From an uncultured Pirellulales bacterium (lineage in GTDB: Bacteria > Planctomycetota > Phycisphaerae > Sedimentisphaerales > Anaerobacaceae): 64,000 nt of DNA. The notes below the pieces were generated by a model. The model had not been told where the DNA came from. It saw nothing but the letters and a program-made list of their open reading frames with translations, and ran no database searches. Position numbers and translations under genes: made by a program. The stretch spans positions 1,559 to 65,558 of the forward strand of contig CAYGZM010000004.1 in NCBI GenBank assembly GCA_964354365.1, given 5' to 3'. Positions 25-34,653 of this stretch are shown here, piece after piece (the first letter of the stretch is position 1; the number at the start of each line of letters is the position of its first letter).

Positions 25-3000
25 TCAGCAATTCTCCACGGATTCATAAGCCCTGATAATGTTTAGCAGTCTATTCACGTAAGTATGATGACTTTTGACT
101 ACTTCCTGCTGTTCGTAAATCATATCTCTATATCTGCCGAATGGCAGACTGAGCGTGTTGTCGATTATTTCTTCGATGCTCCGGCCCGGCACCGTGCAAC
201 CGTTGAATACCTCGTCGAACTTTCTGACGTTCGAGACGCCGAGCTGCCCGTATGAGATATTCTTCCACATCCGGCAGGGAAGATAGTCGTTTTCCACCTG
301 CCAGCGTCCGGCGATTGCCGGGGCAATGAGCGAATGGCGAACGTATCTGACGTTGAGCAAATCCGAAATGCCCTGCAGGTGAACGAATCTTATGTCCCTC
401 TTTTCGAGGACATTTTTTAGAATCTCTATCTCATTGACATTGCCCTGATTCAGCCGATCACTCCATATACTGCCGACCCAGAAGACAATGTTGCTTGGGG
501 GTCTGAGTATCGGCTCTTCAAACTCGCCGGCAAGCAGGTCCGTCGCCCAGGGCTGGAAAAGGGTGCGGGTTTTGCCGTCAAAAAACGTCACCTGGTCCCA
601 CTTTTCGCCGGCCTGCTCCGCCGAGCGTGTGTATGTCCTGAGCCTGATGTTTCTTGATGGATCAATTCTCCGATGGATATCGTCCTCGCAATTATGCAGG
701 CAATAATAGACCCCCCGCCTGATAGGCAGATAGCGGCTCGCGACATCGACGGAGATGACCAGTTCATCGCCTTCTATCACGTCTTTGTTTTCCAGCAGAT
801 CATCCACCAGAACAACGTTTGCATCGAGCCTCTTTAAGGTATTGAAGAAGTGACGATGGATGTGGGCGTGCGTATGCCCACCGGTCTTGAGGCCCCATAC
901 AACTACCTTGCTGAACTTCTCGAGTTTTCTTCGCAATTGCGTCTCAGAGCGCACGGCGTCCCCACAAGTGGCCATCAGGCCGGACCGCCTCGGCGTCCTC
1001 ACCATAGCGGCAGCCGGCGACGCCTGATTTGTAAAGTCCGCAGCCTTCCACGATTCGGAATAAAGCGAGCCTTCCTCACACGACATATCAAAGGCCTGTT
1101 CGCAGGCGCAACTGTTAAGGGTATCGACAGAGCCGCTTTGGGCCGAGCACAGTACGGGCACAACCGAGTCCGCCGCAACGAACTCCCGGCGGGTCACTCG
1201 GATTAGAAGGTCCAGCCCCGGCTCAAAATCCGGTGCCAACCTTACTACCCCTGTGGCCGCTTTCTCGGCAAGGGCTTTGTCCTCGCACTTATCCGCCGCC
1301 TGCGCCAGGCACCATAGGACCTGCTTGTGATCACAAAATGACTTTACCGCCTGCATGAATTCCTGCTCTGCCCGGCCAAAGATGCCCTGCTGAAAACAGG
1401 CAAGGCCGCGCCAAAAGCTCTCAATGCCCGAACCAATCTTTTGCAGACCGGCGGGCACATCGAACGCCTCAGAGAAATCATCCCGCCACAACAGACGCAT
1501 CGGCCCGGGCATCTCATCGCCGGCAAAATGGCTCCAGCGTCGCCGGCACAGCTCTATGTCACGACCGCCTGCATCGGCGTTTGTTTGTTTCTGTGCGTCG
1601 AGCAGATCATTGTGAGTAACGAAACACCCCGGCAGTGGAATAAGCTGCTGGCCGGCCTCGTAAAGCTTATGGCACAAATCGGTATCGGCGCAATAGAACC
1701 TGTAGGCTTCGTCAAAACCGCCCACCCGCCTGAAGCTCTCTAACCTGACCAGACCATAGTTCATCAGCAGCCTGGCCCCATCCGTAAAATCAATACCGTA
1801 TTCGGCCCAATCCTGCCTCGTCGGACGAGGGTTCCTGTAGAAAAATATCCCGCCAGCCACTTGCTCCTTCTGCCTTTTCAGCAGCTCCATCGCCCGAACA
1901 ACCGCACCCGGACCGAATACGATATCGTCACTGGCGTACATTGCCCACTTGCCCCGGGCCTTGGAAAAACCAAAATTATAGAGCTGCGGCCATGAGTGCC
2001 TCTGCGGTCCCAGCCATTCCGACTCGCTATAGACTCCTGTCACACCGTGTTTGCACAATACATCCAGCGTGTTGTCGCGAGAGCCGCCTTTGACCACAAT
2101 CAGCTCGTAAGCTACGCCCGCCGCGGCCTCTTCAAGACTATCGAGCATCTCATCCAGCAGCTCGGCCCTGTCCTTCGTGCAAAGAACAATGCTCAGGTCG
2201 CATTGCTTCTCCGGCTCATCCCCGCCAGGCCCATCGGCCACTTGGCGGGTGGCCCGTGGGGCCGCGCACTGTATCGCCGAATCGGTATTGTGGATGAGAA
2301 TATCTATTTTCTTCTTGACCAGCCCGGCGCCATCCCGCCGGACCGGCGGCCTGTTTGCGGCATACCCAATCCTCAGACTCTTTTTTTCCAGAAACTCAAG
2401 GATCGAGCTGGAAAAAACATGCGGCAGCATCTTGTCGTCTCTGCCGCTCCACCTGGTGTCCCCATTGTGATTCGTGTAAAAGATATTTGCCAAGAGCGCC
2501 CACGGGTTCGTGTCGGGATCTTCGTAAAAGTTCTCGCTGGCCTTATCAATCAAATATGCGAAGCACTTTTGCGCCAGACTGATCCATTGCTTGTGGTCCC
2601 ATCTGAAGCGGTGCCTGACGTGATACGCAAACGGCCCAACAACTCTCTTTATTTGGAACCCCTCCAGGGCGGCAATCAACGGCGCCCAGTAGTCCCACCA
2701 GGGCGCTCCTACACAGAATTCAGTTTTTGGGATATGCGGTATGAGTGATTTATGAAAAAAGAAGAAGTCGAATCCCTGCTCATAAACTTCGCCTTCTAAA
2801 ACCTCAAGGGAATCCACGTTTATTCTTGACCCATAGACAAGAGACCCTCTTGCCTGGCTTTTGATGAAAGAGATAATGCCTTCGTCACCTGCCAGGAAAA
2901 TATCCGAATTTACAATCCCCCCGAATTCAAAATCGCCCTGGCGAAAATATTCCAGAAAGTCGTCAAAATATATAAGCGGTTTGCCAAAGACCTCTCTTGC

Positions 3001-4458
3001 GTCCCGCTTTGCGGGGACAAACTCGACTTGCGGAAATGATTCCCTAAGTGCGTCGATTTCTTCAATGCAGTTTATCGAAACGGGTCTAAAGCCGAGCTTT
3101 GCCCAGCTTTCTATTGCCCTTGCCTGCTTTTCAATTTCTTTCGGAGCTATGCTCGTTGCAATAGTCAGCCGGGCGTCCGGTTGTGTCTCAACGTCGGACC
3201 GGCGCCAGGCATCCGGCAATCCCGCCGACTGCGGTGTGTGAACGTCGAAACTATCTCCACAGTCCGCTGTGGCATTGCCGCGGCCCTCGACCGGGACGAT
3301 CTCTATATTGTCGGTTCCCAGGAACTGCTCAAACGTCTTCCATTTAGGCAACCCGGCCCGCGCCTCCCACAACGAATTGCCCTGCATAAAGACGCGAATC
3401 TTCTGCGAAGACTCCTCAAAACTCCGCTGAACGGCCTCAGTGACCACTTCCGTCGCAACGTCCTTGACACAATGCGAGCTTCTGTATCGGCAGCTCCAAT
3501 TACACCCAAAACACTCCAACGGCAGGCAGGCAACCGACGTCAACGGTGAATAGGGCATGAAACGCCCGAAGTGTCCGCCGCCCAGCAGAATCACATTAGG
3601 CGTTCCCACCGCGCAGGAAATGTGCGCCAGGCCCGTTTCCGCCCCGACCGCCAGCCGGCAGCGCTTGAGGATTGCGCAGGACTGCAAAATGGTTGTCCTG
3701 CCGCTTAAGTTTATCGTCCTTACGCCAATCGCATTCAGGTTCCTCTGGTTGATGTCACGGTCCTGCTCGGTTCCCAACGCGATTACCGTAAGCCGGTTGG
3801 CCCTGCAGAACTCCGACATCGCCTGGCCGTATCCCTCGTACACGCGGCATTCATACTGGGCGCCGGCAAACAGGGCGATTGTCCCGGCCGGATCGAGCCC
3901 GTTTTCCCCAAACAGCCTGTCGGCAAACGCCTCATCCTCCTGTTTCATCCAGACGACGGGCCGCAGCCCCGGCGCCTCAATATCCAGCCCTCTTAGGAAA
4001 TCCCGGTGCCGCTCAAGCTCGAGCTTCTGTCCTCCGGGGCTTGGCAGCAGGTCGGTGTAGAATTGATTGTGCATGCTTCTGCGCTCGGGCGAAATGTTGC
4101 ACAGATTGCCCTCGAGTGCGACGCGCCGCTCGGCCCCGCACTTTATCGCAAACCAATCCGTCAGGGCCTCACGCGAATACACCGAATTCAAGGATAGCTG
4201 CGGCTTCAACATCCGCAATCGCGCCGTAATCTCCAGGCGGTACCGTTCGTCCTCCAGAACCCTTTTCCTGTTGAACACCACAACCTCATCCACGTATGGA
4301 CACGCCTCGTATAGCTCGCCGATATGCTCCTGACAGACAACGACTATCCTGGCGCCCTCGTACTTCCGCCGGATGTACGGCAGCATCGACGCCGACAGGA
4401 CCGCATCACCTATCGAATCCGGCCTCACCCAAACTATGTTCCTGATGTTGTCTATCAT
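25..4458 (-). CDS. Giant (1477 aa) multidomain glycosyltransferase: GT9 heptosyltransferase-like N-domain, uncharacterised central module, GT2 domain, TPR-like linker, uncharacterised C-terminal domain
   Basis: Uninterrupted 4.4-kb ORF. The N-terminus (IVWVRPDSIGDAVLSASMLPYIRRKY ... GAETGLAHISCAVGTPNVILLGGGHFGRF) is typical of the GT9 ADP-heptose transferase fold. Residues about 755-990 (DLSIVLCTKDRAELL ... YELIVVKGGSRDNT) give a GT2/GT-A signature. It is separated by only 3 nt from the upstream gene. Confidence 0.7.
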   Translation of the reverse strand: MIDNIRNIVWVRPDSIGDAVLSASMLPYIRRKYEGARIVVVCQEHIGELYEACPYVDEVVVFNRKRVLEDERYRLEITARLRMLKPQLSLNSVYSREALTDWFAIKCGAERRVALEGNLCNISPERRSMHNQFYTDLLPSPGGQKLELERHRDFLRGLDIEAPGLRPVVWMKQEDEAFADRLFGENGLDPAGTIALFAGAQYECRVYEGYGQAMSEFCRANRLTVIALGTEQDRDINQRNLNAIGVRTINLSGRTTILQSCAILKRCRLAVGAETGLAHISCAVGTPNVILLGGGHFGRFMPYSPLTSVACLPLECFGCNWSCRYRSSHCVKDVATEVVTEAVQRSFEESSQKIRVFMQGNSLWEARAGLPKWKTFEQFLGTDNIEIVPVEGRGNATADCGDSFDVHTPQSAGLPDAWRRSDVETQPDARLTIATSIAPKEIEKQARAIESWAKLGFRPVSINCIEEIDALRESFPQVEFVPAKRDAREVFGKPLIYFDDFLEYFRQGDFEFGGIVNSDIFLAGDEGIISFIKSQARGSLVYGSRINVDSLEVLEGEVYEQGFDFFFFHKSLIPHIPKTEFCVGAPWWDYWAPLIAALEGFQIKRVVGPFAYHVRHRFRWDHKQWISLAQKCFAYLIDKASENFYEDPDTNPWALLANIFYTNHNGDTRWSGRDDKMLPHVFSSSILEFLEKKSLRIGYAANRPPVRRDGAGLVKKKIDILIHNTDSAIQCAAPRATRQVADGPGGDEPEKQCDLSIVLCTKDRAELLDEMLDSLEEAAAGVAYELIVVKGGSRDNTLDVLCKHGVTGVYSESEWLGPQRHSWPQLYNFGFSKARGKWAMYASDDIVFGPGAVVRAMELLKRQKEQVAGGIFFYRNPRPTRQDWAEYGIDFTDGARLLMNYGLVRLESFRRVGGFDEAYRFYCADTDLCHKLYEAGQQLIPLPGCFVTHNDLLDAQKQTNADAGGRDIELCRRRWSHFAGDEMPGPMRLLWRDDFSEAFDVPAGLQKIGSGIESFWRGLACFQQGIFGRAEQEFMQAVKSFCDHKQVLWCLAQAADKCEDKALAEKAATGVVRLAPDFEPGLDLLIRVTRREFVAADSVVPVLCSAQSGSVDTLNSCACEQAFDMSCEEGSLYSESWKAADFTNQASPAAAMVRTPRRSGLMATCGDAVRSETQLRRKLEKFSKVVVWGLKTGGHTHAHIHRHFFNTLKRLDANVVLVDDLLENKDVIEGDELVISVDVASRYLPIRRGVYYCLHNCEDDIHRRIDPSRNIRLRTYTRSAEQAGEKWDQVTFFDGKTRTLFQPWATDLLAGEFEEPILRPPSNIVFWVGSIWSDRLNQGNVNEIEILKNVLEKRDIRFVHLQGISDLLNVRYVRHSLIAPAIAGRWQVENDYLPCRMWKNISYGQLGVSNVRKFDEVFNGCTVPGRSIEEIIDNTLSLPFGRYRDMIYEQQEVVKSHHTYVNRLLNIIRAYESVENC

Positions 4459-4461
4459 CTC

Positions 4462-6945
4462 TTACCTGGCATGGGAATTCGACACCACATAATGGTTCGA
4501 AGTCTGTTCGCTTTGCCGCAGAATCGCCAAGCCCTGTTTATCCAACGGAGAATGCCTCAGAGCGCGTTTTGCAATCCCGCCGGCCTTCTCGGCTTGTCCT
4601 CCGGCGGTATAATAGGCGGCCAGCTCGCACATGGCAGTTACACAGGACGGCTCGACAACAAGCGCACGCTGCCAAAGCTGAGCTGCTTCATCATATCTCT
4701 GACATGATTTGAGAAAATCAGCTCCACGAAGCAACGCTCCCAAGTCGTTGCGATACACATCACAATATGTCGTAACGGCATTCATAACCAGCGATGCAGC
4801 CCTCTCGCGCTCGGCCCGCACCCGCTGTGACCGGCTGATCACATACTCAATTCCGGCACGCAAGTTCTTCTCGAAAGCCTGCTGCGAGTAGTCCCTCAAT
4901 GCAGCCTGCCTGACCTTTATCGAGTGCTCGCGATGCCATTCCGCGGGCTTTGCAGTAAGCTCGCGCACCGTCCGGACTATTTCCTCCACGGAATCATTTT
5001 GCAGCATTATCCCGAAATCATCGACGTCTATAGTGACGTCACGGCTGACAATCGGAATAAGCCCCTGATTCATACATTGAACTACTCCCCCCGAAGATCC
5101 TTCCGCGCATGACACAAAGATAGTGCAGTTGCACAGATTCATCAGCTTGTAGAAGAGGGGCGACCGCAGTTCCACCCAGTCCACAAAATGTATATTGGGA
5201 TGTCCAGCCAAGATTTGCCCGTACACCTCCGCGAAACCCGGCTCTAAACGTCCGGCACACCACAGCTCTGCATCTAATTGCATGAAGGCCTCAACTAACA
5301 GGTCGAGACCTTTGTGCACGTTACCAGCGGAGCCGAAGTAGAGAAAATGTCGGCGGCCGGACTCAAAATCCTTGCTCGAAGGATTATAGTGGTCGTCCGC
5401 ATAGCACCCGTTATTAAGGTTAAAGCAAACCGGAAATTGTCTATAGCTTTCCGCCGCATGACTGTTGCCGAGACATACGATCCCATCAGCATCATGGCAC
5501 GCAAACTCTTCACTGTGTTGTATCCACCGGTCATACGGCAGACGCACGCCGCGCCTTCTCTCAAGGTCGGCAAATCTCTCGGCCTCCCGCCGATTGAACT
5601 GCCGCCAGTATATTCCTGTCGCAAAGTATATCTTCACGGCCTGACCGACGACGTTCCTGCTTAGATACTCCCAATTGGCGCCGGCATGGCCGACGAAAAG
5701 GTCGTACACCTTGTCACTCTTGAAGTCCATGCAGGTCCAATCGATCAAATCAACAACATAGCCCATCTCTACCAGAACCTTGACCATGCTCCGGGCAATA
5801 CCCGCGTTACTGAACATATGCGGGTGATACTTCAGCCCCATCCTTATCGGGGCGGTAATATAGGAAACCAGCGCGTTTCCCTTTGTCGCCGTCGGCACAG
5901 ACCTGGAGCTTCGGCATGTTCCGGGCATCGCCGGGCTATTGCTCCTGAATGCGGCAGCAGAATCCGACATTACATCCGGATGTGTACCTGTAAACGGCTC
6001 AGTGCGCGATTGCTCATCACCAAGCCAGACGGGGTACCTGCTTTCTATCTCCTCCCGATTCTGCGGATTCCACTTGAGAAAACATTCATTGTACCAGCCC
6101 TGCCGGTCGTAGCCCTGAAAGTTCGCATTCCTGTCCATCCTGCCGTAGTAGTCATTCTTCTGCTTGACCTGGCTGTCCAGAATGTAGTTGTAATGATACA
6201 TCACCAGCCCCATTCGCCTGGTCGTCGTCCCGTCCAGAAGATGCATCTGCTCGGTAGTCTTGTTCTGGCCCGGCCAGACCATTGTGGGAGGGCGATGGGA
6301 TATGAATACGGCCCCCGGGACAAACTTGAACAACCTTCGGAAGTGATTTGAAAACTCGAAGAACTTCGATGAGTAAACAATGTAATCCGGCCCCTTCCAG
6401 AAACTGTCAGGGATGAAATTCACCTGAGTAATTGACGGATCGTTCTTGAGAACCTCATTTATCTTCTCAAGATGCTCTCGCTTATAGACCTCATCGGAAT
6501 CTATCAGCCAGACGTAGTCACCAGTGACATATTTGAGCGCCTCGTTCTGCATCTCGCATTTTTCCGGCCATCTGCCCTGAATCAGCCTGACCTTTTTCTG
6601 CGGGTCAGGGAAAGATTTTATGAATTGAATCGTCCCGTCCATGCTGCCGCCATCCGGACCGGCGGCGAACATGCAGTTTTCCACCGCGCCTTCGACAATG
6701 ATTATCTCGTGGGCAAAGTCATAAACGGACTTGAGGCTGTATTCAATAAACGGCATACCGTTCAGCACGATCATCACGAACGAGAACCGCAGCTCCTTCT
6801 CTTTGAAATTCTGCCCATTCGCCCAGGCCGCCGCGGCGCCAAATCCGCCGTCGTGAATAGATGTCCTGTCCGTGTTCAACTTGGTTCCTTTTCCAGCGCC
6901 TCTAAGCAAATCACATATTCCATTCCTGTCCCGCTCTCCCCGCAA
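4462..6945 (-). CDS. Bifunctional glycosyltransferase (GT2-like + GT-B/GT4-like) with C-terminal TPR repeats, 827 aa
   Basis: Residues about 55-300 (FSFVMIVLNGMPFIEYSLKSVYDFAHEIIIVEGAV ... YVWLIDSDEVY) look GT-A with an acidic DxD-type motif. Residues about 350-690 (HFLYFGSAGNVHKGLDLLVEAF ... SCAEGSSGGVVQCMNQGLIPIV) look GT4-like. The tail (YDEAAQLWQRALVVEP ... AKRALRHSP) is TPR-like. Confidence 0.7.
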   Translation of the reverse strand: MRGERDRNGICDLLRGAGKGTKLNTDRTSIHDGGFGAAAAWANGQNFKEKELRFSFVMIVLNGMPFIEYSLKSVYDFAHEIIIVEGAVENCMFAAGPDGGSMDGTIQFIKSFPDPQKKVRLIQGRWPEKCEMQNEALKYVTGDYVWLIDSDEVYKREHLEKINEVLKNDPSITQVNFIPDSFWKGPDYIVYSSKFFEFSNHFRRLFKFVPGAVFISHRPPTMVWPGQNKTTEQMHLLDGTTTRRMGLVMYHYNYILDSQVKQKNDYYGRMDRNANFQGYDRQGWYNECFLKWNPQNREEIESRYPVWLGDEQSRTEPFTGTHPDVMSDSAAAFRSNSPAMPGTCRSSRSVPTATKGNALVSYITAPIRMGLKYHPHMFSNAGIARSMVKVLVEMGYVVDLIDWTCMDFKSDKVYDLFVGHAGANWEYLSRNVVGQAVKIYFATGIYWRQFNRREAERFADLERRRGVRLPYDRWIQHSEEFACHDADGIVCLGNSHAAESYRQFPVCFNLNNGCYADDHYNPSSKDFESGRRHFLYFGSAGNVHKGLDLLVEAFMQLDAELWCAGRLEPGFAEVYGQILAGHPNIHFVDWVELRSPLFYKLMNLCNCTIFVSCAEGSSGGVVQCMNQGLIPIVSRDVTIDVDDFGIMLQNDSVEEIVRTVRELTAKPAEWHREHSIKVRQAALRDYSQQAFEKNLRAGIEYVISRSQRVRAERERAASLVMNAVTTYCDVYRNDLGALLRGADFLKSCQRYDEAAQLWQRALVVEPSCVTAMCELAAYYTAGGQAEKAGGIAKRALRHSPLDKQGLAILRQSEQTSNHYVVSNSHAR

Positions 6946-6957
6946 GGGGCCCTCCCG

Positions 6958-11958: not shown

Positions 11959-11987
11959 TTATTAACCTTTTAACACTTCCGGTGCTT

Positions 11988-12830
11988 TCAACTCTTTATT
12001 CTTGCCGTTACACATAAGTGCCAACCGCACCTTCGTTCCATCCAGCGAAAGACCTTTTCAGGAAGATAGCGAAAATACCATACCTTTTTGTACCGATACG
12101 CTTTGTAATCCTCGATGCGATAGGGAAAAATATGTTCGACTTTCGTCTCCAAGACCTCAAATCCTTCAAGCAGCTCCTCTATGCTTCTCTTTGTAAACGT
12201 ATAAGTGACCGGGCAGCCGGTTTGAGCTTCGGAATATCGTGCAATCAGCTCATCCAGTCTCCAAAACGCCCCTTTGGCGTATGTCATCAGCATCGCGAAC
12301 ACCTTCCACGAACGCCGATGATAAACCATTATCTTCAAAATGCTCCGCGGCCCCATATATTTGCGGATCTCGGAAATGGCCCTCGCAGGACGCGGAGTAT
12401 GGTGAATTACGCCGAAAGAATAAACCAGGTCGTACTCGCGCACCGGCACAACCTCGGAAAGCTCCTCGGCATTCGCCTTGTAAAAATCAATCTTTAATCC
12501 ATAAACACCCGCCCGCTTTCCGGCGATCTCTAGCGACTTTGCCGAGTAGTCCACCGCCGTGACCTTCGCCCCGGCTCTGGCAAAATTGATGGTATCGGTT
12601 CCTATTCCACACCCCACCTCCAGCACACTCTTATCCTTCCATCGTTCAAACTGTGCAAAGCCCCGAATATGCGGCTCAACGAAATACTTCCTTGCCTCAA
12701 CCTCTTCAAAGTATTCGCGGCTCCCGGCTTCACGCGGAGAATGATGCAGATTGCAGGGCCTGGCGTCCCAGAATGCCTCAACCTTCTCCATAGCAACATG
12801 GGCAAAGTTTTTTACACTGTCGGCAGACAT
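11988..12830 (-). CDS. Class I SAM-dependent methyltransferase
   Basis: VLEVGCGIGTDTINFARAGAKVTAVDYS supplies GxGxG motif I plus an acidic motif II. The size (280 aa) fits. An alternative start at M14 (12791) would remove the 19-nt overlap with the upstream gene. Confidence 0.85.
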   Translation of the reverse strand: MSADSVKNFAHVAMEKVEAFWDARPCNLHHSPREAGSREYFEEVEARKYFVEPHIRGFAQFERWKDKSVLEVGCGIGTDTINFARAGAKVTAVDYSAKSLEIAGKRAGVYGLKIDFYKANAEELSEVVPVREYDLVYSFGVIHHTPRPARAISEIRKYMGPRSILKIMVYHRRSWKVFAMLMTYAKGAFWRLDELIARYSEAQTGCPVTYTFTKRSIEELLEGFEVLETKVEHIFPYRIEDYKAYRYKKVWYFRYLPEKVFRWMERRCGWHLCVTARIKS

Positions 12831-14149
12831 TTGACGTATGCCCCCAGGCCCAAACCTATGTAGTTAAACTTTGTGAATTTCCGCGACACGAGCTCACGCC
12901 AGCTATCCAGCAGAACGCATCCGTCCTTTGCGCTGCTCTCAATTCGCTCCCAATCAAGCTCCTTAAACGCCGGCCATCGCGTTAGAAGCACAATAGCATC
13001 CGCGCCACGAACACACTCATACGGGTCGCTCCAATACTCAACTGCCGGCCCCAACGCCTCTGCCGCATCCTCCAGGGCCGCCGGGTCGTGAACATTTACG
13101 CTGTAGCCGGCATCAATAAGTCTGTTTGCCAGCATTATCGATTGCGATTCTTCTATCACGTGCGTCCCCTGCTTGTACGATAAACCGAGCAGAGCCACGT
13201 TTGCCGCATCCGGCGCGTATGCCTTGATAAGACCATATAGTTTTTCCACAACCATATCATTAACGGCAACGGTCGCCCGGCTTATCTTCGCCTCATAACC
13301 TACATTCATAGTGAAAGTCTGAAACGCAGCATTGTCCCGCGGGAAACACGTGCCGCCAAATCCCATGCCCGCCCGCAGATATTTGCCGCCCACCCGGCTG
13401 TCGAAACCTATCGCCTCGGTAATTGCATCAACGTCGGCGCCCGGTATCCTTTCGCATATATTGGACAGCTCGTTGGCAAAACTTATCTTCGTCGTAACAA
13501 AACAGTTTAGACTCAGCTTGCTGATTTCTCCATTCAGCAACGACATCTTTGCGATACGCGGCCTATTTTCGCACGAGCTCAAATAGAGCTGCTCAACCAT
13601 CTGGGCCGAACGCTCGTCGGATGCGCCGATAAGCACCATATCAGGTCTTGAAAAATCATGAATTACCGACCCTAAAGCTATGAACTCAGGGTTGTAAACG
13701 AGCCCAAAATCCTCCCCGCAAACCTTCCCGCTCAGCTGCTCCAGCAAAGGCTTAAAAACGCCTTCGGATGAACCGGGCATAACGGTCGAGACAACATCCA
13801 CCACGTGAAATTCACCCGTGGACGCAAGCACCGGGCCAATCCGGTGTAATACAGCCTCAACATGCTCGTTCGAGAATCCCCCGTCAGGTCCGCTCGGAGT
13901 GGGAACAATAACCAGCGTAATATCTGAATGCCGCACGCCATCGGCTATCTCGGTTGTCACCGAAAAGTTGCCCCACGCCGTCTCCAGAAGCTCAGCCAGT
14001 CCTGTCTCCCTGATGGGACAGCGCTTTTGCCCAAGCTCACTGACAAGATAATTGCTCTTATCGACCCCAGTGACTCTATGTCCCTTGGAGGCAAAGTACG
14101 CTGCCGTGCATAGACCCAGCTTACCTAAACCAACTACCGACAGCTCCAT
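12812..14149 (-). CDS. Nucleotide-sugar dehydrogenase (UDP-glucose/GDP-mannose dehydrogenase family)
   Basis: N-terminal Rossmann motif VVGLGKLGLCTAAYFASKGHRVTGVD. Catalytic-Cys motif GFGGTCFPRD. C-terminal nucleotide-sugar binding domain. 445 aa. Confidence 0.9.
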   Translation of the reverse strand: MELSVVGLGKLGLCTAAYFASKGHRVTGVDKSNYLVSELGQKRCPIRETGLAELLETAWGNFSVTTEIADGVRHSDITLVIVPTPSGPDGGFSNEHVEAVLHRIGPVLASTGEFHVVDVVSTVMPGSSEGVFKPLLEQLSGKVCGEDFGLVYNPEFIALGSVIHDFSRPDMVLIGASDERSAQMVEQLYLSSCENRPRIAKMSLLNGEISKLSLNCFVTTKISFANELSNICERIPGADVDAITEAIGFDSRVGGKYLRAGMGFGGTCFPRDNAAFQTFTMNVGYEAKISRATVAVNDMVVEKLYGLIKAYAPDAANVALLGLSYKQGTHVIEESQSIMLANRLIDAGYSVNVHDPAALEDAAEALGPAVEYWSDPYECVRGADAIVLLTRWPAFKELDWERIESSAKDGCVLLDSWRELVSRKFTKFNYIGLGLGAYVKCLPTV

Positions 14150-14172
14150 TTTTTACCTCTTTACACACAGCA

Positions 14173-15537
14173 TCAAATGAACTTGTATGTCATACTATCG
14201 CTTAGAATCACCTGCTCGTATATTTCATTGTGCGGCTGATACGTGCACCGCGGACACTCGCTCTGGACGATAATTCTGTCGTGAATGTCCCAATGTTGTC
14301 CGCTGCCCCACAGCTTCTGAATCTCATCGGCGCTTTCGATATTCCTGGCCAATTCGAGCTTCGAATCGCCGCGCCTGTCGCAGCAAAGACCAACCGTGAA
14401 GGAATCCGCCGGCGCATCCTCGCCCACCGGCGGCTCGATAACCGCCGTCATAAATATAGAGTGACACCTGCAGAAGTAGTTTGCACTGGCAAACTGGGAA
14501 TTGAATTTATGAGTCACTCCATATACCCCAAAAGTCTCGTCGTCCAGCTCCAGCGCCCTGGTAATCTGTTCTTCAAACAACAGTATCTCCTCTCGTGAGA
14601 ACGAAATCTCCTTCTCGGTGCCTAACTTATCCCACGTAGTCCCCACGGGCCTGAAATGAATGTTCTTACACCCGATTCGCTTGGCGAGCTTCGCCGCCTC
14701 ATAGACCTCGCCGATATTGTCCCGGTATAGAAGATACTTGAAACTGACGCCGTAAGCCGGATGTTTCCAACCTAACTTGTTATTGTGCATCCTCGCGTAG
14801 TCAACCAGGATGGCCGTATTGCTGGTCACCCTGTCAAACAAGTCGCACTCGCCCGGCAGCCTTTTCAGCTTGTTGTAGGTCTGCCTCGTAGCCGCATCAA
14901 CCGATACGCCCACCCATACCGCCTGGGACAGAGAATCAACGAACCCGTCCATCATCGTCCCGTTCGTGACCACGCCCACATCAACGTTGTTTGCCGCCAC
15001 CCTGTCGATGAACCCGCCGGTCGCCGGATTGAGCAGCGGCTCCCCCCCGCCGGCGATGCAAATCGCCTGCACTCCCGTCTCCCCGAAACCCATCCCCTCA
15101 CCCCAGCGAGGCAGAAAATCGGCAATCTCCCTCAACGCATTTTCCGAAAGTGAGCCTCTGCGCTCTCTGCGCACGAATTCCGCATTGCACCAGACGCAGC
15201 TCAGATTGCAGAGGTTAGTCGGGTCAACGGTTACAAGCACCGGCGGCGGAATCGCCCTGCCCCGCTTGATGCCCTTCCATCTGTCAACGTGCGCAAGCAG
15301 CTTGTAGCTGTTGAACGGATTCCACCTCTTGCTCGGATTCCATTCTCTCCGCGCTTGCTGTGGCACCTGCTGAATTTCGCCCGTGGCCTGGCCGCCCGTA
15401 GAAATCGCATCGGCAGGGCCGGCGGCAAAGCCAATCCCCTCCCCATAACCGTTCCCATCAGCCTTGCTCACTTCAGGCACGTATTTCACCCCCGGCCCCG
15501 CCACTTCCCGAACCGCCCTTTTCCTTACGACGAACAT
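14173..15537 (-). CDS. Radical SAM enzyme, with a low-complexity N-terminal extension of about 75 aa
   Basis: CNLSCVWCN is the CxxxCxxC 4Fe-4S/SAM motif, followed by a GGEPLL-type motif (IAGGGEPLLNP). ATG at 15537 is preceded by GAAGGA. A Cys-rich C-terminus (CRCHS ... CCDRR ... CPRC) may be an auxiliary cluster domain. Confidence 0.8.
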   Translation of the reverse strand: MFVVRKRAVREVAGPGVKYVPEVSKADGNGYGEGIGFAAGPADAISTGGQATGEIQQVPQQARREWNPSKRWNPFNSYKLLAHVDRWKGIKRGRAIPPPVLVTVDPTNLCNLSCVWCNAEFVRRERRGSLSENALREIADFLPRWGEGMGFGETGVQAICIAGGGEPLLNPATGGFIDRVAANNVDVGVVTNGTMMDGFVDSLSQAVWVGVSVDAATRQTYNKLKRLPGECDLFDRVTSNTAILVDYARMHNNKLGWKHPAYGVSFKYLLYRDNIGEVYEAAKLAKRIGCKNIHFRPVGTTWDKLGTEKEISFSREEILLFEEQITRALELDDETFGVYGVTHKFNSQFASANYFCRCHSIFMTAVIEPPVGEDAPADSFTVGLCCDRRGDSKLELARNIESADEIQKLWGSGQHWDIHDRIIVQSECPRCTYQPHNEIYEQVILSDSMTYKFI

Positions 15538-15559
15538 CCGATATTCCTTCTGCCGAAAG

Positions 15560-15886
15560 TCACTTCCTTGCGGCCTGAATAGTGCTGCGATAAACCCCTA
15601 TTGTCTTTCTGCCCCTGCGAATTCGGTCCAGCTCGCTGCTTACCTCGTCTCTCTGGTCGGTGAGAGTCAGTTTCAGATTTCGGTACAACCCAGCTATGTT
15701 TTTTCGCTGCCCTTCAAACTCCGCGGACTTAAGTGTCCCGGTCTGTGCTATTTCTTCAACAATACCGTCCACCTTCTCGCCCAGGGCCTCGACTTCGCTC
15801 AGTTTGCCCTGCCGAGCCAGGTCTATCTGCCCTTCCAGCAACCTTTGCATCTCGTTCAACAGCCACACTTGCCTGTCTGTGCCCAT
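15560..15886 (-). CDS. Small (108 aa) coiled-coil protein, FlgN/chaperone-like; function unknown
   Basis: The internal ATG at 15886 lies 1 nt after the TAG stop (15888-15890) of the upstream TPR gene. The longer ORF start at 15958 would overlap that gene by 70 nt. The helical heptad-rich sequence is MGTDRQVWLLNEMQRLLEGQIDLARQGKLSEVEAL... Confidence 0.5.
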   Translation of the reverse strand: MGTDRQVWLLNEMQRLLEGQIDLARQGKLSEVEALGEKVDGIVEEIAQTGTLKSAEFEGQRKNIAGLYRNLKLTLTDQRDEVSSELDRIRRGRKTIGVYRSTIQAARK

Positions 15887-15887
15887 A

Positions 15888-16517
15888 CTACCCCCCCGCC
15901 TGCTTCCGCCCGGCCAGGCTGTGCTCCACCTCCTCCAATAGATTCGCCGCATCCTCATTGCCCGGATTCAACGCCAGCAGGTCCGCAAGCAGCGCACTGG
16001 CCTGCTCAAGCCGGTTCTCCTTGACGTAAAGCGCCGCCAGGGAAAACATCACCGAGCCGTCGCCGGGGTGCATATCGAGATATACTTCAAGATAGTGGAT
16101 GACCTTGCCGAACGACCCCATCCTGCAGGAAGTCTGAAACAGCCCCAAAAGAGCCGTTAGATTGTCCGTATCCAGCTCCAGGCATCGCAAATAAAAGTCA
16201 AATGCCTGCTGGAAATCTTCTCTCTCTTGCGCAACCATAGCCAGCCCCGCGTAGGCCTTGGAACAGTCGGTATCCAGCCGACAGGCAACCCGAAACGCTA
16301 TCTCCGCATCCTCAAGAAGTCCCTTCTGCAGCGCGACCACGCCGAGCCCAACATAAGGACCGGACTCGTCCGGTCCCAGTGACGCCGCTTTCTCGTAGCA
16401 CTTCTGTGCCTGCTCATAGCTGCCCACCGATGTGTAACAGTCGCCAAGCTCCTGCAGCACTCCATAACGCTGCGTCGTATTCTCATGCTCAGAAATATTG
16501 CCCCGTGTTATTTCCAT
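15888..16517 (-). CDS. Stand-alone TPR repeat protein (209 aa)
   Basis: Repeated 34-residue units with a W/Y-x-A-x-A-Y-P-like pattern (CYTSVGSYEQAQKCYEKAASLGPD; AYAGLAMVAQEREDFQQAFDFYLRCLELDTDN). Overlaps the stop of the upstream GT2 gene by 10 nt. Confidence 0.75.
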   Translation of the reverse strand: MEITRGNISEHENTTQRYGVLQELGDCYTSVGSYEQAQKCYEKAASLGPDESGPYVGLGVVALQKGLLEDAEIAFRVACRLDTDCSKAYAGLAMVAQEREDFQQAFDFYLRCLELDTDNLTALLGLFQTSCRMGSFGKVIHYLEVYLDMHPGDGSVMFSLAALYVKENRLEQASALLADLLALNPGNEDAANLLEEVEHSLAGRKQAGG

Positions 16518-18079
16518 ACCAGCTCTTTTCCTTCAAGCATCCGCTCCGCCTCTTCAAGAAGTGCTATTGACCCGTCAAAATTCTTCCTCGCCCTGTGCAG
16601 TCTCGCCTGCAACAGCAGCGTATCGACGGTAGGCTTTTTCTCGTTGACTTCACGCACCAGCTCAGCCGCCTTTCCAAGCTCGCCGGCCTTGTAGAAAGCC
16701 TCCGCAGCCCTGGATTTCATCCACAGCTCATTTCCATAACGCTCAACGGCGCTCTCAAACACCCGGCCCGCTTCCGCCCAGTTTCCTTCTTCTCCCACCG
16801 ACTTGGCCTGGCAAATCAACTGGTCAAGCTGGAAGGGAATCTCATCCGGCTGCACTCGCCTTACCTCAATACCGGCCGCACGCAGCGACTCTCGAATCGA
16901 CATACCCGGAAATCTCCGCCGGGCGTCCCGCAGGTCCTCTGTCTTCAATACCACCGCCCAAAAATTGTCTGTCGAGTCTTCAAGCTCAAATCCTTCTCGC
17001 TCCCTCGAGCTCTCAATCAGGGCATAAAACGAATCTTCCAGCCAGAACTCTCTTATTGGAAACCCGCTCGGCGTCACCGCCGTATATTCGCCCCCGCATC
17101 TCGCCAGGGCCGCATCGACTTTCTCGGTCTGCGACGCATTGGAATCAACCAACACGGTGACTACGTTGGGCATATCCGCATCTAACCTCTCCGAGTCACG
17201 CGGCGACAGCGGCAGGTAGAGCTCATAAGGATAAAAAGTATGACGCCAGATTGAAGCGAGGGTCTTGCCCGCCTGTTGATTCAGCTGCTCCGCAACGAAG
17301 ATTATCGAAACGTCCTTAATCTTCGGCCAGGGCTTGGCAGGTCTGGTCGTTCGTATCGTTATGACGTTTCGCAGGTACTCCTTTTCGTCCTTGCGACGCC
17401 GGACCGACACCCTGTCCGACTCGCCGATGGGACTGTAATATTCACCCGTGATCTTCTGGACGTGATGGAAGTCTGAAAAGAAGCACAGCTTGCGGGTCAA
17501 ATCCCAGTCTATCAGCACGTTAAGCTGCTCATTGTAAGGCCCGATCTTCTCAAGCAGAACACGGCGGTGCATCAGGCTCACGTGCAGCGTGTGATTGAAA
17601 TAGAGCATAACAAATCGGTCGAAGTCCCTGCTGACCTCGAGCACCTTGCTCAGAATCTCCCGGCTGCCGTCCGGCTGAATCCGGCAATACGTCCGGTACA
17701 AGTCGCCGTACGCGACCCCGCAGTCCGTCTCATTCTCCAGCGCATTGACAAGCGTGCCGACGTGATGGCTGTAGTACAGATCATCGTCGCCAAGATAACA
17801 GATATATTTGCCCCTCGCGCGGGCCAGCGCCTCATTTAGCGTAAAGGGTATCCCACGATTGGCCTTCCTGTCGATGAACACAATCCTCGTATCGTCGAAC
17901 AACTCGACAACGTCGCGCACATCCTCTCCGCCGTCTCTGATTACGAATATCTCGAGATTGCTGTAATCCTGGCGCACGGCACTCTCCAATGCCGCACGCA
18001 AATACAGCGGCCTGTTGTAGGTCGGTATAAGCACGCTGACAAGCGGCCCGTCTTTTACGCCAAAATCATCTACCATCAT
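16508..18079 (-). CDS. GT2 glycosyltransferase with C-terminal TPR domain (523 aa)
   Basis: LVSVLIPTYNRPLYLRAALESAVRQDYSNLEIFVIRDGGED and YICYLGDDDLYY are a classical GT2 N-terminal signature with a DxD motif. The C-terminal 90 aa (AEAGRVFESAVERYGNELWMKSRAAEAFYKAGELGKAAELV) are TPR-like. Confidence 0.85.
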   Translation of the reverse strand: MMVDDFGVKDGPLVSVLIPTYNRPLYLRAALESAVRQDYSNLEIFVIRDGGEDVRDVVELFDDTRIVFIDRKANRGIPFTLNEALARARGKYICYLGDDDLYYSHHVGTLVNALENETDCGVAYGDLYRTYCRIQPDGSREILSKVLEVSRDFDRFVMLYFNHTLHVSLMHRRVLLEKIGPYNEQLNVLIDWDLTRKLCFFSDFHHVQKITGEYYSPIGESDRVSVRRRKDEKEYLRNVITIRTTRPAKPWPKIKDVSIIFVAEQLNQQAGKTLASIWRHTFYPYELYLPLSPRDSERLDADMPNVVTVLVDSNASQTEKVDAALARCGGEYTAVTPSGFPIREFWLEDSFYALIESSREREGFELEDSTDNFWAVVLKTEDLRDARRRFPGMSIRESLRAAGIEVRRVQPDEIPFQLDQLICQAKSVGEEGNWAEAGRVFESAVERYGNELWMKSRAAEAFYKAGELGKAAELVREVNEKKPTVDTLLLQARLHRARKNFDGSIALLEEAERMLEGKELVWK

Positions 18080-18111
18080 AAGTCTATCAAAAGATCATAA
18101 ACAGCCGCACG

Positions 18112-19596
18112 TCACCAGACGCCGCGCCCCCCAAACACGCCGACGGGCGGCCCCACAGACATTCCAACATCGCGGCTGAGGTCCCGCTCGCGATCCGAGT
18201 CTATCCGGGCCTCCAGCCCGGCCAGAATCTCGTTGATCCCGCTCAACTGGCGATCCAGAGAATACCTCTGCTCGACGAATCCGCGATACCTTCGAGGCTC
18301 GTATCTATCGCTTAGAACCTGTCCGCAGAACTCCTCGGAGATATTGAACAGGAATTCCGACGGGAAAATCTGCTGTGCCCCCACGAAATTATGGACGACG
18401 GGCTTCAACCCGCAGGCCATCCCCTCCAATATCCCGACGGGATGCCCTTCGCAGATGGATGTTGAGGCTATGTAATGCTTGTCGCCCAGCCAGGCATTCA
18501 CATCGTCCTGCCAGCCGTCAAAGAACACCACGTCCCGCAGGCCCAGCGCCTCAACTGTATGCCTTAGATACTGTTCGAGAACCTGGTCCTGAAATGCCCC
18601 CCCGAAGAACAGCCGATACGCGGGGTCAATGTAATGCAGCTTCTGCATGCACTGCAGCGCAAAGGCCGGGTTCTTGACCATCCGCAGATTCCCCAGAAAT
18701 GCTATGTTCTTGCCCCGCCGCCTGTCAACAAATGCAAATCGCTTGAGATTGATGCCGTTTGGAACGGTTACGACCGAAGTCCGGCTTTCTATATCGGGAA
18801 CCTGCCCCTTAAGAGTCTCCAGAGTAACAGCGTTGCCGACCGTCACCAGAACATCTATGTTGCTCCAATTGACCTGTCCCGGCCACCGCTCGTATGCCTC
18901 GTACCGGTGCAGTCTGACAATATTCTTGCAGACCTTGGGCCTCGCCGAGGCCGCCACTGCAAGATTCGTGCACCACTCGAACCACGAAATATCGCTCCAC
19001 CGCATCAATTCAAAGAGCTCGTCCTGCGTTTGGCCCTCAAAGACCCGCACTTCAAAACGCCGCTTCGTGAACTCAATGATCTCGTGCAGAAACGTCATCC
19101 CGTCGCCCCCGCAGAAGAAAGCTATTTTCGGCCTTTTGGAGCGAATCACTTCAACCATAGGCGTCAGCACATTCTGCTCGGGCGCAATTTCCAGCGACCG
19201 GAGCAGCATCTCGAGCGCATTTGCCTTGTCGCCCTGGTCCAGGAAGACGGTCGCAGTCCTGTTGAGGACATCCGGATTCAATATCCCCATCCGCTCCATA
19301 TCGTCGAAAAGCCCCGCGGCTTCTTCGGCCCTGCCGACGGCGATATACGTCTCGGACAAGTTCCACAGTATCTCGGCGCTGTCCTGCCTAAGACGTCTGG
19401 CCCTGTTGAAATGATCGATGGCCTCATCCGAACGGCCCAAGCAATGAAGTATTGCCCCTGCGTCATTCAACGCCTCGCCGTCTTCGGGCGCGGCCTGCAG
19501 ATGTGCCCGGATATGCTCAAGAGCCTCCTGATGCCTGCCGGCCTCGGCCAATTCCCGGCCCCTGCGGTAGTGGTCCGAATTAGTTTGCCCTGTCAT
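18112..19596 (-). CDS. TPR (N-terminal) + GT-B/GT4-like glycosyltransferase (C-terminal), 494 aa; architecture like flagellin glycosyltransferases of the FlmG type
   Basis: The N-terminal 140 aa hold TPR units (GRELAEAGRHQEALEHIRAHLQAAPEDGEALNDAGAILHCLGRSDEAIDHFNRARRL). The C-terminus (ASTSICEGHPVGILEGMACGLKPVVHNF) matches the GT4 E-x7-E region. It is the first gene after the repeat-filled gap downstream of flgL. Confidence 0.8.
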   Translation of the reverse strand: MTGQTNSDHYRRGRELAEAGRHQEALEHIRAHLQAAPEDGEALNDAGAILHCLGRSDEAIDHFNRARRLRQDSAEILWNLSETYIAVGRAEEAAGLFDDMERMGILNPDVLNRTATVFLDQGDKANALEMLLRSLEIAPEQNVLTPMVEVIRSKRPKIAFFCGGDGMTFLHEIIEFTKRRFEVRVFEGQTQDELFELMRWSDISWFEWCTNLAVAASARPKVCKNIVRLHRYEAYERWPGQVNWSNIDVLVTVGNAVTLETLKGQVPDIESRTSVVTVPNGINLKRFAFVDRRRGKNIAFLGNLRMVKNPAFALQCMQKLHYIDPAYRLFFGGAFQDQVLEQYLRHTVEALGLRDVVFFDGWQDDVNAWLGDKHYIASTSICEGHPVGILEGMACGLKPVVHNFVGAQQIFPSEFLFNISEEFCGQVLSDRYEPRRYRGFVEQRYSLDRQLSGINEILAGLEARIDSDRERDLSRDVGMSVGPPVGVFGGRGVW

Positions 19597-19624: not shown

Positions 19625-19737
19625 TTCTGCAAAATTGCAGGTTAGACGTAGGGTGGGCTTCAGCCCACCACTTCGGTGGGGCAAGCCCCACCCTGCCGAG
19701 AAGAAATCGCTTGTTGATTACCTGCAATTTTGCAGAA
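19625..19737. mobile_element. MITE-like 113-bp element with perfect 18-bp terminal inverted repeats enclosing a double-hairpin core
   Basis: TTCTGCAAAATTGCAGGT (19625-19642) is the exact reverse complement of ACCTGCAATTTTGCAGAA (19720-19737). The core AGGGTGGGCTTCAGCCCACCACTTCGGTGGGGCAAGCCCCACCCT is also found, inverted, at 44521-44566. Confidence 0.75.
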
Positions 19738-19753: not shown

Positions 19754-19837
19754 GTGGCACGGGCTTCCAGTGGCACGGGCTTGAAGCCCGTGGGACCACG
19801 GCCAAGATGGCCGTGCCACGAATGGCCGTGCCACGAA
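19754..19837. repeat. Family A palindromic repeat (GTGGCACGG / CACGGGCTTGAAGCCCGTG units)
   Basis: Contains GTGGCACGGGCTTCCAGTGGCACGGGCTTGAAGCCCGTGG ... GGCCGTGCCACGAATGGCCGTGCCACGAAT. Related copies lie at 20112-20195, 23942-24053, 32509-32610 and 38998-39072. Confidence 0.85.
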
Positions 19838-19869
19838 TACTGCCAATCGCAGCGCGGTCTTGCCACCCT

Positions 19870-19957: not shown

Positions 19958-20111
19958 AACCAACAAATCTCGTGCCATCGGCCTTTATCCCTGTTTATTC
20001 ACGATTACTGGCCGTCGCAAGACTCGATGTGTATAAATATCAAACACTTATGTCTTCAAAGCGCCTTCTCAATCCCTGCCCGCCGCGGCGGGCCAGCCTC
20101 CCAATCGCAAT

Positions 20112-20195
20112 GTGGCACGAGCTTCCAGTGGCACGGGCTTCCAGCCCGTGCGACCACGGGCGAGACGCCCGCGCCACGAATGGCCGTGCCACGCA
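20112..20195. repeat. Family A palindromic repeat copy, immediately downstream of flgL
   Basis: GTGGCACGAGCTTCCAGTGGCACGGGCTTCCAGCCCGTGCGACCACGG ... CGCCACGAATGGCCGTGCCACGCAT. The GC-rich hairpin CACGGGC-N5-GCCCGTG could act as a terminator or RNA stabiliser for the flg operon. Confidence 0.8.
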
Positions 20196-34650: not shown

Positions 34651-34653
34651 CCC

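Follow-up and report, generated by a model that had tools for sequence, protein, structure and literature searches.

A ten-gene glycosyltransferase and methyltransferase cluster behind flgK-flgL in an environmental Planctomycetota genome, a probable system for the O-glycosylation of flagellar proteins

We analysed a 64,000-nucleotide (nt) stretch of contig CAYGZM010000004.1 (assembly GCA_964354365.1), referred to below as the window, with a focus on a cluster of ten genes (G1 to G10, numbered in the direction of transcription) that follows the flagellar genes flgK and flgL and probably encodes machinery for the glycosylation of flagellar proteins. All genes of the cluster and of the flagellar operon lie on the minus strand. 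Gene calls were assessed by Pfam and NCBIfam scans across all ten cluster proteins. The genes are as follows:

21415-23376, minus strand: flgK, hook-associated protein 1, 653 amino acids (aa) (TIGR02492, 280 bits, cut-off 171)
20216-21400, minus strand: flgL, hook-associated protein 3, immediately upstream of the cluster (TIGR02550, 187 bits, cut-off 127)
18112-19596, minus strand: G1, tetratricopeptide repeats (TPR) and a family 4 glycosyltransferase (GT4) domain (Pfam)
16508-18079, minus strand: G2, GT2 domain and C-terminal TPR (Pfam)
15888-16517, minus strand: G3, TPR only, 209 aa (TPR_2, 66 bits)
15560-15886, minus strand: G4, FliT-like, 108 aa as called in relatives (sub-threshold FliT match, fold, position)
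14173-15537, minus strand: G5, radical S-adenosylmethionine (SAM) enzyme, first gene of the island described below and of its G5-G6-G7 cassette (Radical_SAM, 47 bits)
12812-14149, minus strand: G6, UDP-glucose/NDP-sugar 6-dehydrogenase (TIGR03026, 346 bits; all three UDPG_MGDP_dh domains)
11988-12830, minus strand: G7, class I SAM-dependent methyltransferase (MTase) (Methyltransf_25, 66 bits)
6958-11958, minus strand: G8, mosaic protein of 1666 aa with MTase domains and TPRs (Pfam, PDB profile match)
4462-6945, minus strand: G9, 827 aa, with GT2 (residues 57-178), GT4 (532-664) and a weak C-terminal TPR (734-813) (Pfam)
25-4458, minus strand: G10, 1477 aa, with a GT9-like GT-B domain (147-317) and GT2 (756-885) (Pfam)

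A first-pass annotation, made from the letters alone, had described ten co-directional genes with gaps of at most 32 nt, on the strand of the flg operon and separated from flgL by a repeat-filled gap of about 620 nt. This description was confirmed: the gaps from G1 to G10 are, in order, 32, -10, 1, 22, 23, -19, 29, 12 and 3 nt (range -19 to +32 nt), and the 619 nt between flgL and G1 contain two 85-nt palindromes and an 18-nt inverted repeat. The window edge lies 24 nt past the stop codon of G10. The expected minimum of six GT domains was found exactly, with GT4 in G1, GT2 in G2, GT2 and GT4 in G9, and GT9-like and GT2 in G10. Four MTase domains had been counted, three of which are firm (G7, the FkbM domain of G8 at residues 58-224 and the class I domain of G8 at residues 305-392), while the fourth, a Methyltransf_24 domain in G8 (about residues 916-1020), has weak support (E 0.019). 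The nucleotide-sugar dehydrogenase (G6) and the radical-SAM enzyme (G5) were both recovered, the latter with a CX3CX2C motif at residues 110-117 and six more C-terminal cysteines. TPRs are present in G1, G2, G3 and G8, those of G8 at about residues 1148-1203 and 1565-1656 (PDB consensus TPR, 5e-11; TPR_2 on the fragment, 30.1 bits, cut-off 27). The C-terminal TPR of G9 is weak (a Pfam match at E 2.6e-4 that falls short of the cut-off, and an hhalign alignment to the G3 profile with E 7.6e-4 and probability 25%), and the TPR once assigned to the open reading frame (ORF) at position 25, G10, found support in no method: Pfam, the PDB search and hhalign against the G3 profile were negative, and a single sub-threshold TPR_2 match of 20 bits is insufficient. 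The tenth gene, which had been left without an identity, is the FliT-like G4. In G8 to G10, about 40% of the length carries no assigned domain.

None of the ten cluster proteins has a predicted membrane segment or signal peptide (no 19-residue Kyte-Doolittle window above 1.4). This agrees with the lack of any flippase, polymerase, ABC-transporter or polyprenyl-phosphate transferase family match among them in Pfam and NCBIfam, and bears out the earlier statement that no Wzx/Wzy/ABC exporter or initiating transferase is visible. Close homologues of the cluster proteins are annotated in metagenome-assembled genomes of Planctomycetota or Sedimentisphaerales, and identical copies of G1 to G7 are present on a Logan contig; a G10 of 100% identity is on an NCBI contig.

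The window proteins were mapped onto about 90 loci in total, comprising 80 metagenome loci retrieved with a G1 profile together with NCBI and GTDB loci (individual loci carry L numbers below); adjacency to flgL was counted in loci with enough flank. In 58 of 59 loci the G1 orthologue comes directly after flgL, the last gene of flgN-flgK-flgL, so that the flagellar linkage proposed earlier is no coincidence of the window. Downstream of G1, we found G2 in 58/60, G3 in 53/53 and G4 in 46/50 loci (E<=1e-10). In four minimal loci (L081, L088, L066, L033) G4 abuts fliD, which follows after 167-544 nt in the order flgK-flgL-G1-G2-G3-fliT-like-fliD, and in four further loci fliD lies 5.7-10 kb after G4. 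These short and long distances indicate that the stretch from the FliT-like gene to fliD is a variable insertion slot, occupied here by G5 to G10. The cluster is thus composed of a conserved core, G1 to G4, and a hypervariable island, G5 to G10. The one-operon picture of the first-pass annotation stands as regards tight packing; its homogeneous megaenzyme operon trailing the flg genes gives way to a four-gene core with its own promoter motif plus a variable island.

The sequence beyond position 1 was read from relatives whose G10 is 79%, 67% and 64% identical. In L090 (G6 95%, G7 92%, G10 79% identical), G10 is followed by a 968-aa double-GT2 protein and then fliD. L008 (G10 64%) has the double-GT2 gene and fliD, then flhB, fliR, fliP, fliO and motB on the opposite strand. 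The ORFs after G10 in L007 (G10 67%) agree in size and order, and L091, which carries a more distant GT9 megaprotein, has the same tail as L090 and L008. No Wzx/Wzy/ABC export or polymerisation locus was present beyond the cluster in the flanks of L090, L008 and L091. A continuation past position 1 into a polysaccharide export locus was therefore not seen; relatives give a double-GT2 gene, then fliD and, in two loci, the flagellar export genes flhB-fliRPO. A Nitrospirae homologue (L092) lies at a contig end.

Among the core proteins, G1 combines an N-terminal TPR at about residues 8-145 (TPR_2, 54 bits; 9e-37 against a consensus-TPR PDB entry) with a GT4-type GT-B domain at residues 155-475 (Glycos_transf_1, 50.8 bits). 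It has 1130 homologues at E<=1e-10, and the best 120 of the 1130 are about 65-97% identical. E383 and E391, whose spacing is that of the GT4 EX7E motif, are invariant in orthologues. The AlphaFold2 (AF2) model (predicted local distance difference test score, pLDDT, 84.6) shows about ten TPR helices and then two Rossmann-like halves. The best whole-chain Foldseek matches of this model were bacterial OGT (5djs, 3e-15), SPINDLY and human OGT, with E values from 3e-15 to 1e-12 (8dti, 1.7e-14), and the root-mean-square deviation (rmsd) from the OGT matches exceeded 20 Å. The catalytic part alone superposed best on the GT4 enzyme BshA, with a template-modelling (TM) score of 0.65-0.68 and an rmsd of 4-5 Å. 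The Pfam matches of G1 are Glycos_transf_1 and Glyco_trans_1_4; the GT41 catalytic domain PF13844 is absent from G1 in Pfam, and NCBIfam contained no family above cut-off matching it as FlmG-class. As modelled, G1 has the layout of OGT but is a member of GT4, not GT41, which makes it a candidate protein-directed priming transferase.

G2 consists of an N-terminal GT2 domain of GT-A fold (Glycos_transf_2, 77 bits), a conserved middle region and a C-terminal TPR (TPR_19, 27.2 bits, Pfam cut-off 25). Its residues D49, D99 and D100 (DDDD motif) are invariant among 31 orthologues, and the invariance of catalytic residues in both G1 and G2 argues that the two are active enzymes. Only about 200 nt of G2 survive in L081 (11595-11802), and L054 and L069 lack the gene at its normal position, with G1, G3 and G4 kept; some lineages can thus do without G2, and G1 and G3 were never found missing. 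G3, with its strong TPR match, also shows a sub-threshold likeness to SycD/LcrH-type chaperones of type III secretion systems (T3SS) (57.6 bits, cut-off 104.8) and is a candidate trans-acting substrate adaptor or chaperone. G4 matches Pfam FliT (PF05400) below threshold (21 bits, cut-off 29.5). FliT is the commonest Pfam match among its orthologues, again sub-threshold, being hit by 15 of 47 (best E 1.3e-5). The single-sequence AF2 model of G4 (pLDDT 83.9) is a three-helix hairpin, and FliT structures, including a FliT-FliD-FlhA complex, account for five of its seven top PDB fold matches (TM 0.57-0.77, with weak E values of 0.2-0.9). A search of PDB sequences with a profile built from 47 G4 orthologues retrieved ribosomal protein S20 only, which was judged spurious. 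On the sub-threshold Pfam matches, the fold matches and the gene position, G4 is probably the export chaperone of FliD, or alternatively an adaptor like the GlfM protein described below.

We compared the median identities of core and flagellar proteins across loci in which G1 is below 80% identical. G3 is the most conserved core gene (70.7%), followed by G1 (67.5%), G2 (60%) and G4 (42%), and the flagellar proteins FlgI, FlgL, FlgK and FlgN reach 70.1%, 62%, 61% and 49%, respectively. By this measure the conservation of the core matches that of structural flagellar proteins, with G1 and G3 level with the P-ring protein FlgI.

The spacer between flgL and G1 and the flagellar genes upstream contain the following features:

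19963-19977, minus strand: sigma-54-type promoter motif TGGCACGAGATTTGT (GG-N10-GT variant of GG-N10-GC), proposed promoter of the G1 operon
19754-19838, no strand: 85-nt repeat resembling repetitive extragenic palindromes (REP-like), copy 1, in the flgL-G1 gap
20112-20196, no strand: 85-nt REP-like palindromic repeat, copy 2, 88% identical to copy 1, in the flgL-G1 gap
19625-19737: 18-nt perfect inverted repeat TTCTGCAAAATTGCAGGT on both sides of a GC-rich palindrome of 77 nt, shortly before the G1 ribosome-binding site
19774-19792, 20132-20150, 23998-24016, 24030-24048, 32575-32593 and 39049-39067: sites of the REP-like core CACGGGCTTNNAGCCCGTG
23405-23926, minus strand: flgN, in the flagellar operon
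31842-32225, minus strand: flgD, in the flagellar operon upstream of the cluster
32314-32328, minus strand: exact sigma-54 consensus TGGCACGCTGATTGC, about 90 nt upstream of flgD
33049-34650 and 38642-40219: sigma-54 activators encoded in the window
44773-45621: sigma-70-family factor after flhA, possibly FliA

The motif GGYAY-N5-TTGY was found in 64 of 69 flgL-G1 intergenic regions, compared with a mean of 0.45 and a maximum of 3 in shuffled sequences. In relatives it typically reads CGGCACGGAATTTGC and usually lies 60-130 nt before the G1 start. The form TGGCACGAGATTTGT is shared by the window and its closest relatives; here it stands 369 nt before the G1 start codon, owing to inserted copies of the REP-like palindrome and to the small inverted-repeat element. 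Upstream, the flagellar operon runs flgD, flgE, a 449-aa ORF, flgF, flgG, flgA, flgH, flgI, a short FlgJ-like gene, flgN, flgK and flgL, and the consensus site before flgD suggests that the flgD-flgL operon is sigma-54-dependent as a whole. From its motif, the core looks like a sigma-54-dependent flagellar transcription unit of its own. Consensus scans detected neither an intrinsic terminator nor a sigma-70 promoter in the flgL-G1 gap, and because no terminator-like site was found there, read-through from flgL could also occur. A sigma-28 promoter in the gap was rejected, since it had no conserved matches.

The spacer is about 250 nt long in most relatives, compared with 619 nt in the window. 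We considered a regulatory RNA or a mobile-element scar as the origin of the 619-nt gap and rejected both: the repeats are dispersed REP-like palindromes (six CACGGGCTTNNAGCCCGTG sites in the window, 0.02 expected), which together with the shorter gap of the relatives indicates that the extra length consists of inserted repeats. The TTCTGCAAAATTGCAGGT inverted-repeat element is unique in the window and may be a small miniature inverted-repeat transposable element or a 5'-leader RNA hairpin. One CACGGGCTTNNAGCCCGTG site (39049-39067) falls inside the listed ORF of the second sigma-54 activator, whose true start may therefore be further downstream.

Loci with core genes 65-95% identical differ in what their islands contain. 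Elsewhere the slot holds nucleotide-sugar enzymes, namely epimerases, dehydratases, GDP-mannose-dehydratase-like and RmlD-like proteins, DegT aminotransferases, transketolase pairs, 2-hydroxyacid dehydrogenases and six cytidylyltransferases, together with MTases and radical-SAM enzymes. We surveyed 31 megaproteins of 700-2400 residues encoded in the slot, with the following numbers carrying each domain:

GT2: 19 of 31
class I MTase (Methyltransf_11/Methyltransf_25): 13 of 31
Methyltransf_24: 9 of 31
GT9-like: 9 of 31
FkbM MTase: 8 of 31
GT4: 6 of 31
Radical SAM: 6 of 31
TPR: 4 of 31
PF01973 (MAF_flag10): 4 of 31

Megaproteins with MAF_flag10 occur in the slot of L040, L043 and L075, and some combine this domain with TPR and GT2; those of L040 and L075 are arranged MTase(s)-Maf-TPR-GT2, close to a cytidylyltransferase gene. 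Residues 1-515 of G8 (window 10413-11958; the FkbM and class I MTase modules) have 42% GC, compared with 51% in the rest of the gene, and are missing from the 92%-identical relatives L003 and L090. Segments of G8 are combined differently in L007, L008, L012 and L078, and relatives of its first 250-285 residues occur in L007 and L078. Homologues of G8 and G9 are fused as one protein of 1893 aa in L090. The low-GC block, its absence from L003 and L090 and the L090 fusion indicate recent module insertion and gene fusion or fission. Relative to the window, the island segments of L078 are more similar (G7 77%, part of G8 88%) than its core (G1 67%), a pattern that suggests that island modules are exchanged laterally. 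The GT9-like module of G10 (about 390 aa) is about 40-70% identical to modules in megaproteins of Desulfobacterota, Nitrospirota, Acidobacteriota and Ignavibacteria; carriers of such modules, which are megaproteins with TPR, GT2 and MTase domains, include Geobacteraceae and Syntrophobacterales. An assignment of G5 as a BlsE-like cytosylglucuronate decarboxylase (E 1.6e-3) was too weak to assign a reaction and was kept as a lead only.

We compared the cluster with characterised systems. FlmG of Caulobacter crescentus and Brevundimonas subvibrioides binds flagellin through its TPR, sets donor specificity through its GT-B domain and acts in the cytoplasm before export (PMC7591256; bioRxiv 10.1101/2022.03.25.485807). 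G1 likewise has an N-terminal TPR and then a C-terminal GT-B domain, a likeness compared by architecture only; FlmG has 596 aa with a TPR of about 310 aa, whereas G1 has 494 aa with a TPR of about 145 aa. FlmG transfers pseudaminic or legionaminic acid made by a nonulosonic acid (NulO) pathway, whereas the ten-gene cluster lacks a NulO synthase or CMP-sugar synthetase. OGT (GT41) and SPINDLY place a TPR superhelix ahead of GT-B and glycosylate Ser/Thr in the cytoplasm, and G1 shares only their layout. Listeria monocytogenes GmaR, a GT2-type protein with TPR, O-GlcNAcylates flagellin (PMC9638930). Its domain order, GT2 then TPR, is that of G2, but GmaR has a C-terminal anti-repressor domain that binds MogR, whereas G2 has a conserved middle region and a terminal TPR; a PDB search gave no sequence match between G2 and the solved part of GmaR.

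In Shewanella, Maf-1 binds flagellin by its C-terminal TPR, and GlfM, a small four-helix FliS/FliT-like bundle encoded in cis, is the adaptor that bridges Maf-2 to flagellin. G4 is comparable to GlfM, and the Maf-TPR layout of Maf-1 is repeated by the L040 and L075 megaproteins of the same slot. Maf enzymes are defined by MAF_flag10, whereas the window cluster uses GT4, GT2 and GT9-like catalytic domains. With the defining domains absent, the cluster is a member of neither the Maf nor the GT41 family. Known flagellin O-glycosylation systems act in the cytoplasm on unexported protein. In Pseudomonas, Enterobacteriaceae, Geobacillus and Campylobacter, flagellin glycosylation islands are found inside the flagellar regulon; they bring together GTs with genes for sugar-nucleotide synthesis and for methyl or amino modification, and differ strongly between close relatives (PMC4875605). 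The window island is also embedded among flagellar genes, has GT, sugar-nucleotide and modification genes and varies among relatives. It lies between flgL and, in relatives, fliD, whereas the islands of Enterobacteriaceae lie between fliC and fliA or flgL; and where classical islands encode single-domain enzymes, we find multi-domain proteins 0.8-2.4 thousand residues long next to an invariant TPR-GT core. By analogy, the system may function like the known islands and the TPR-tethered flagellin glycosyltransferases.

Related modules also occur in a cluster of Geomonas oryzisoli (CP076723, 23531-48228; L089), where they are 53% identical to the GT9-like module of G10 and 60% to the GT2 region of G9. 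This cluster has sugar-nucleotide genes, TPR-GT2 proteins and two TPR-GT41 (OGT-type) genes, and ends, in this complete genome, at the flagellin regulator genes flaF-flbT. A Geobacteraceae metagenome scaffold (L093) carries a megaprotein cluster similar to it. The Geobacteraceae clusters belong to another phylum, have TPR-GT41 in place of a TPR-GT4 core and different flagellar flanks, and are uncharacterised. The shared modules suggest that flagellum-linked megaenzyme clusters span phyla.

Taken by analogy with these systems, the cluster is likely to be a cytoplasmic O-glycosylation system for flagellar axial proteins, with flagellin as the most probable target, organised in two tiers. The flagellin-glycosylation reading is supported, indirectly, by synteny, core conservation, the promoter motif, the Maf domains of sister islands and the lack of membrane segments, and O-glycosylation by the best whole-chain matches of the G1 model, which are TPR plus GT-B protein O-glycosyltransferases. 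The comparison thus lends support to the protein glycosylation first proposed for the cluster. We infer the specific target (flagellin, or the hook-associated proteins whose genes flank the cluster), the order of steps, the sugar chemistry and the roles of G3 and G4.

The first tier, G1 to G4, would be formed by lineage-conserved flagellar genes with a sigma-54-type promoter of their own, directly behind flgK-flgL. In G1 and G2, the TPRs would hold an unfolded or chaperoned substrate, and the catalytic domains would add the first sugars to Ser/Thr, with G3 acting in trans as adaptor or chaperone and G4 serving as FliD chaperone or GlfM-like bridging factor. The second tier, a horizontally exchanged island, would comprise G5 to G10 and probably one double-GT2 gene beyond position 1. 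Here G6 may oxidise a UDP-hexose, giving a uronic acid, and the sugar may be modified by the radical-SAM enzyme G5 and the MTase G7; on the protein, the soluble multi-domain G8 to G10 may lengthen the glycan and methylate it. Once decorated, the protein would leave via the flagellar type III apparatus. A more far-reaching and tentative proposal, which we regard as rather doubtful, is that G1 to G3 form an obligatory lineage-wide assembly module: an OGT-like priming complex with G3 as the chaperone or adaptor that hands flagellin or hook-associated proteins to the two transferases, after which swappable megaenzymes finish the glycan, with the GT9-like module of G10 representing a widespread, unrecognised class of flagellar glycosyltransferase in environmental anaerobes.

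Several observations weigh against a flagellin-glycosylation system. No flagellin-like ORF other than flgL was detected in the window by phmmer and an FlgL-family profile, as the first-pass annotation had also noted, and tblastn with approximate Escherichia coli FliC termini gave no match. Likewise, no flagellin gene lies within 10 kb of about 60 related loci, although a very divergent flagellin could escape this search. The putative promoter is of the sigma-54 type, with a -12 element that in the window is GT rather than GC. The sigma-54 class drives hook and basal-body genes more often than major flagellin genes. Pfam scans found no MAF_flag10 (PF01973) domain in any of the ten cluster proteins, and no NulO synthase (NeuB/PseI-type) or cytidylyltransferase/CMP-sugar synthetase is encoded among the ten genes. 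On the evidence of the model, G1 matches OGT in the domains it contains more than in a rigid architecture common to both. Genomes of these phyla have many TPR-GT fusions, which alone are no proof of protein substrates. The source organism is known from metagenomes only. Classical flagellin glycosylation islands, finally, adjoin the flagellin gene (PMC4875605).

The first of these points leads to the best-surviving alternative, which keeps the same machinery but takes FlgK, FlgL, FliD or the hook as its substrates instead of flagellin. The core always lies between flgK-flgL and the FliT-like gene or fliD and never beside a flagellin gene, and with no flagellin gene nearby and the genes of FlgK, FlgL and FliD at its flanks, hook-associated proteins are a serious alternative or extra target. 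G4 resembles FliT, the FliD-specific chaperone, the sigma-54-type motif is like that upstream of flgD-flgE, which would place the core in the same expression class, and both FliD (about 800 aa) and FlgK (653 aa) are large. Against this, the Maf domains of sister islands are known solely as flagellin glycosyltransferases, and a hypervariable island better suits an abundant, surface-exposed filament protein than proteins present in few copies. We regard hook-associated proteins in place of flagellin as unlikely, and the two kinds of target are compatible with each other.

Somewhat less probable still is that G1 to G3 act mainly as regulatory or assembly factors in the manner of GmaR, as TPR scaffolds that tie flagellar export or expression to sugar-nucleotide status, with glycosylation secondary or lost. 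G1 and G3 are conserved like FlgI while the glycan island varies, which suggests a role independent of any particular sugar; GmaR sets the precedent of a GT2-TPR protein with a regulatory function; and G3, which lacks a catalytic domain, bears a weak likeness to class II chaperones of T3SSs. However, E383 and E391 of G1 and D49, D99 and D100 of G2 are invariant, so that enzymatic activity appears to be maintained, and although four island-free loci have the core directly beside fliD, sugar donors could be encoded elsewhere. The least probable explanation, a cell-envelope glycan (lipopolysaccharide, LPS; capsule; exopolysaccharide; sheath-like polymer) or a soluble methylated oligosaccharide placed among flagellar genes by co-regulation or chance, can appeal to GT2/GT4/GT9 domains, a UDP-sugar dehydrogenase and FkbM MTases that are also typical of O-antigen and capsule loci, and to GT9 as the classical LPS heptosyltransferase family, but is opposed by the lack of predicted membrane segments and of Wzx, Wzy, ABC and polyprenyl-phosphate transferase families in the cluster, by relatives with visible flanks that have only fliD and flagellar export genes beyond it, by the flgL linkage in 58/59 loci and by the FliT-like gene inside the cluster, and we consider it very improbable.

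A full-text search of a paper library found no description of flagellar protein O-glycosylation in Planctomycetota, its only match being on Helicobacter. What is known of flagellin glycosylation comes from Caulobacter and a few pathogens, where nearly all systems use nonulosonic acids and Maf or FlmG enzymes. The new elements here are the phylum, a TPR core of three invariant genes, a location between flgL and fliD, the fused megaenzymes and the predicted non-NulO chemistry. These results indicate that an environmental lineage of Planctomycetota keeps a different, invariant TPR-GT core in its flagellar gene set together with an exchanged island of GT, MTase and radical-SAM megaenzymes. If the flagellar O-glycosylation reading is correct, it would extend such modification to Planctomycetota, provide natural modular fused enzymes that build a glycan on a protein without a lipid carrier, and make the cross-phylum GT9-like module a candidate new family of flagellar glycosyltransferases. 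A fixed acceptor-recognition part combined with an exchangeable donor and elongation part would also offer a template for glyco-engineering.

The remaining observations concern other genes of the window. The 449-aa ORF between flgE and flgF (28747-30096, minus strand) has no Pfam or NCBIfam match; genes of 424-437 aa without a Pfam match occupy the same position in L003 and L005, and it is apparently a conserved flagellar-locus gene. A block of about 45% GC at 51730-54961 encodes a 500-aa DNA N6/N4-methylase fused to an Mrr-type restriction endonuclease domain and a 519-aa LA2681-like HEPN protein with TPR, and looks like a small defence island unrelated to the glycosylation cluster. The plus-strand flagellar and regulatory genes at 32000-50000 have an AT skew of 0.10-0.26, compared with values near zero for the minus-strand flagellar genes. 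An 893-aa TPR protein (34865-37546) is encoded between the two sigma-54 activators.

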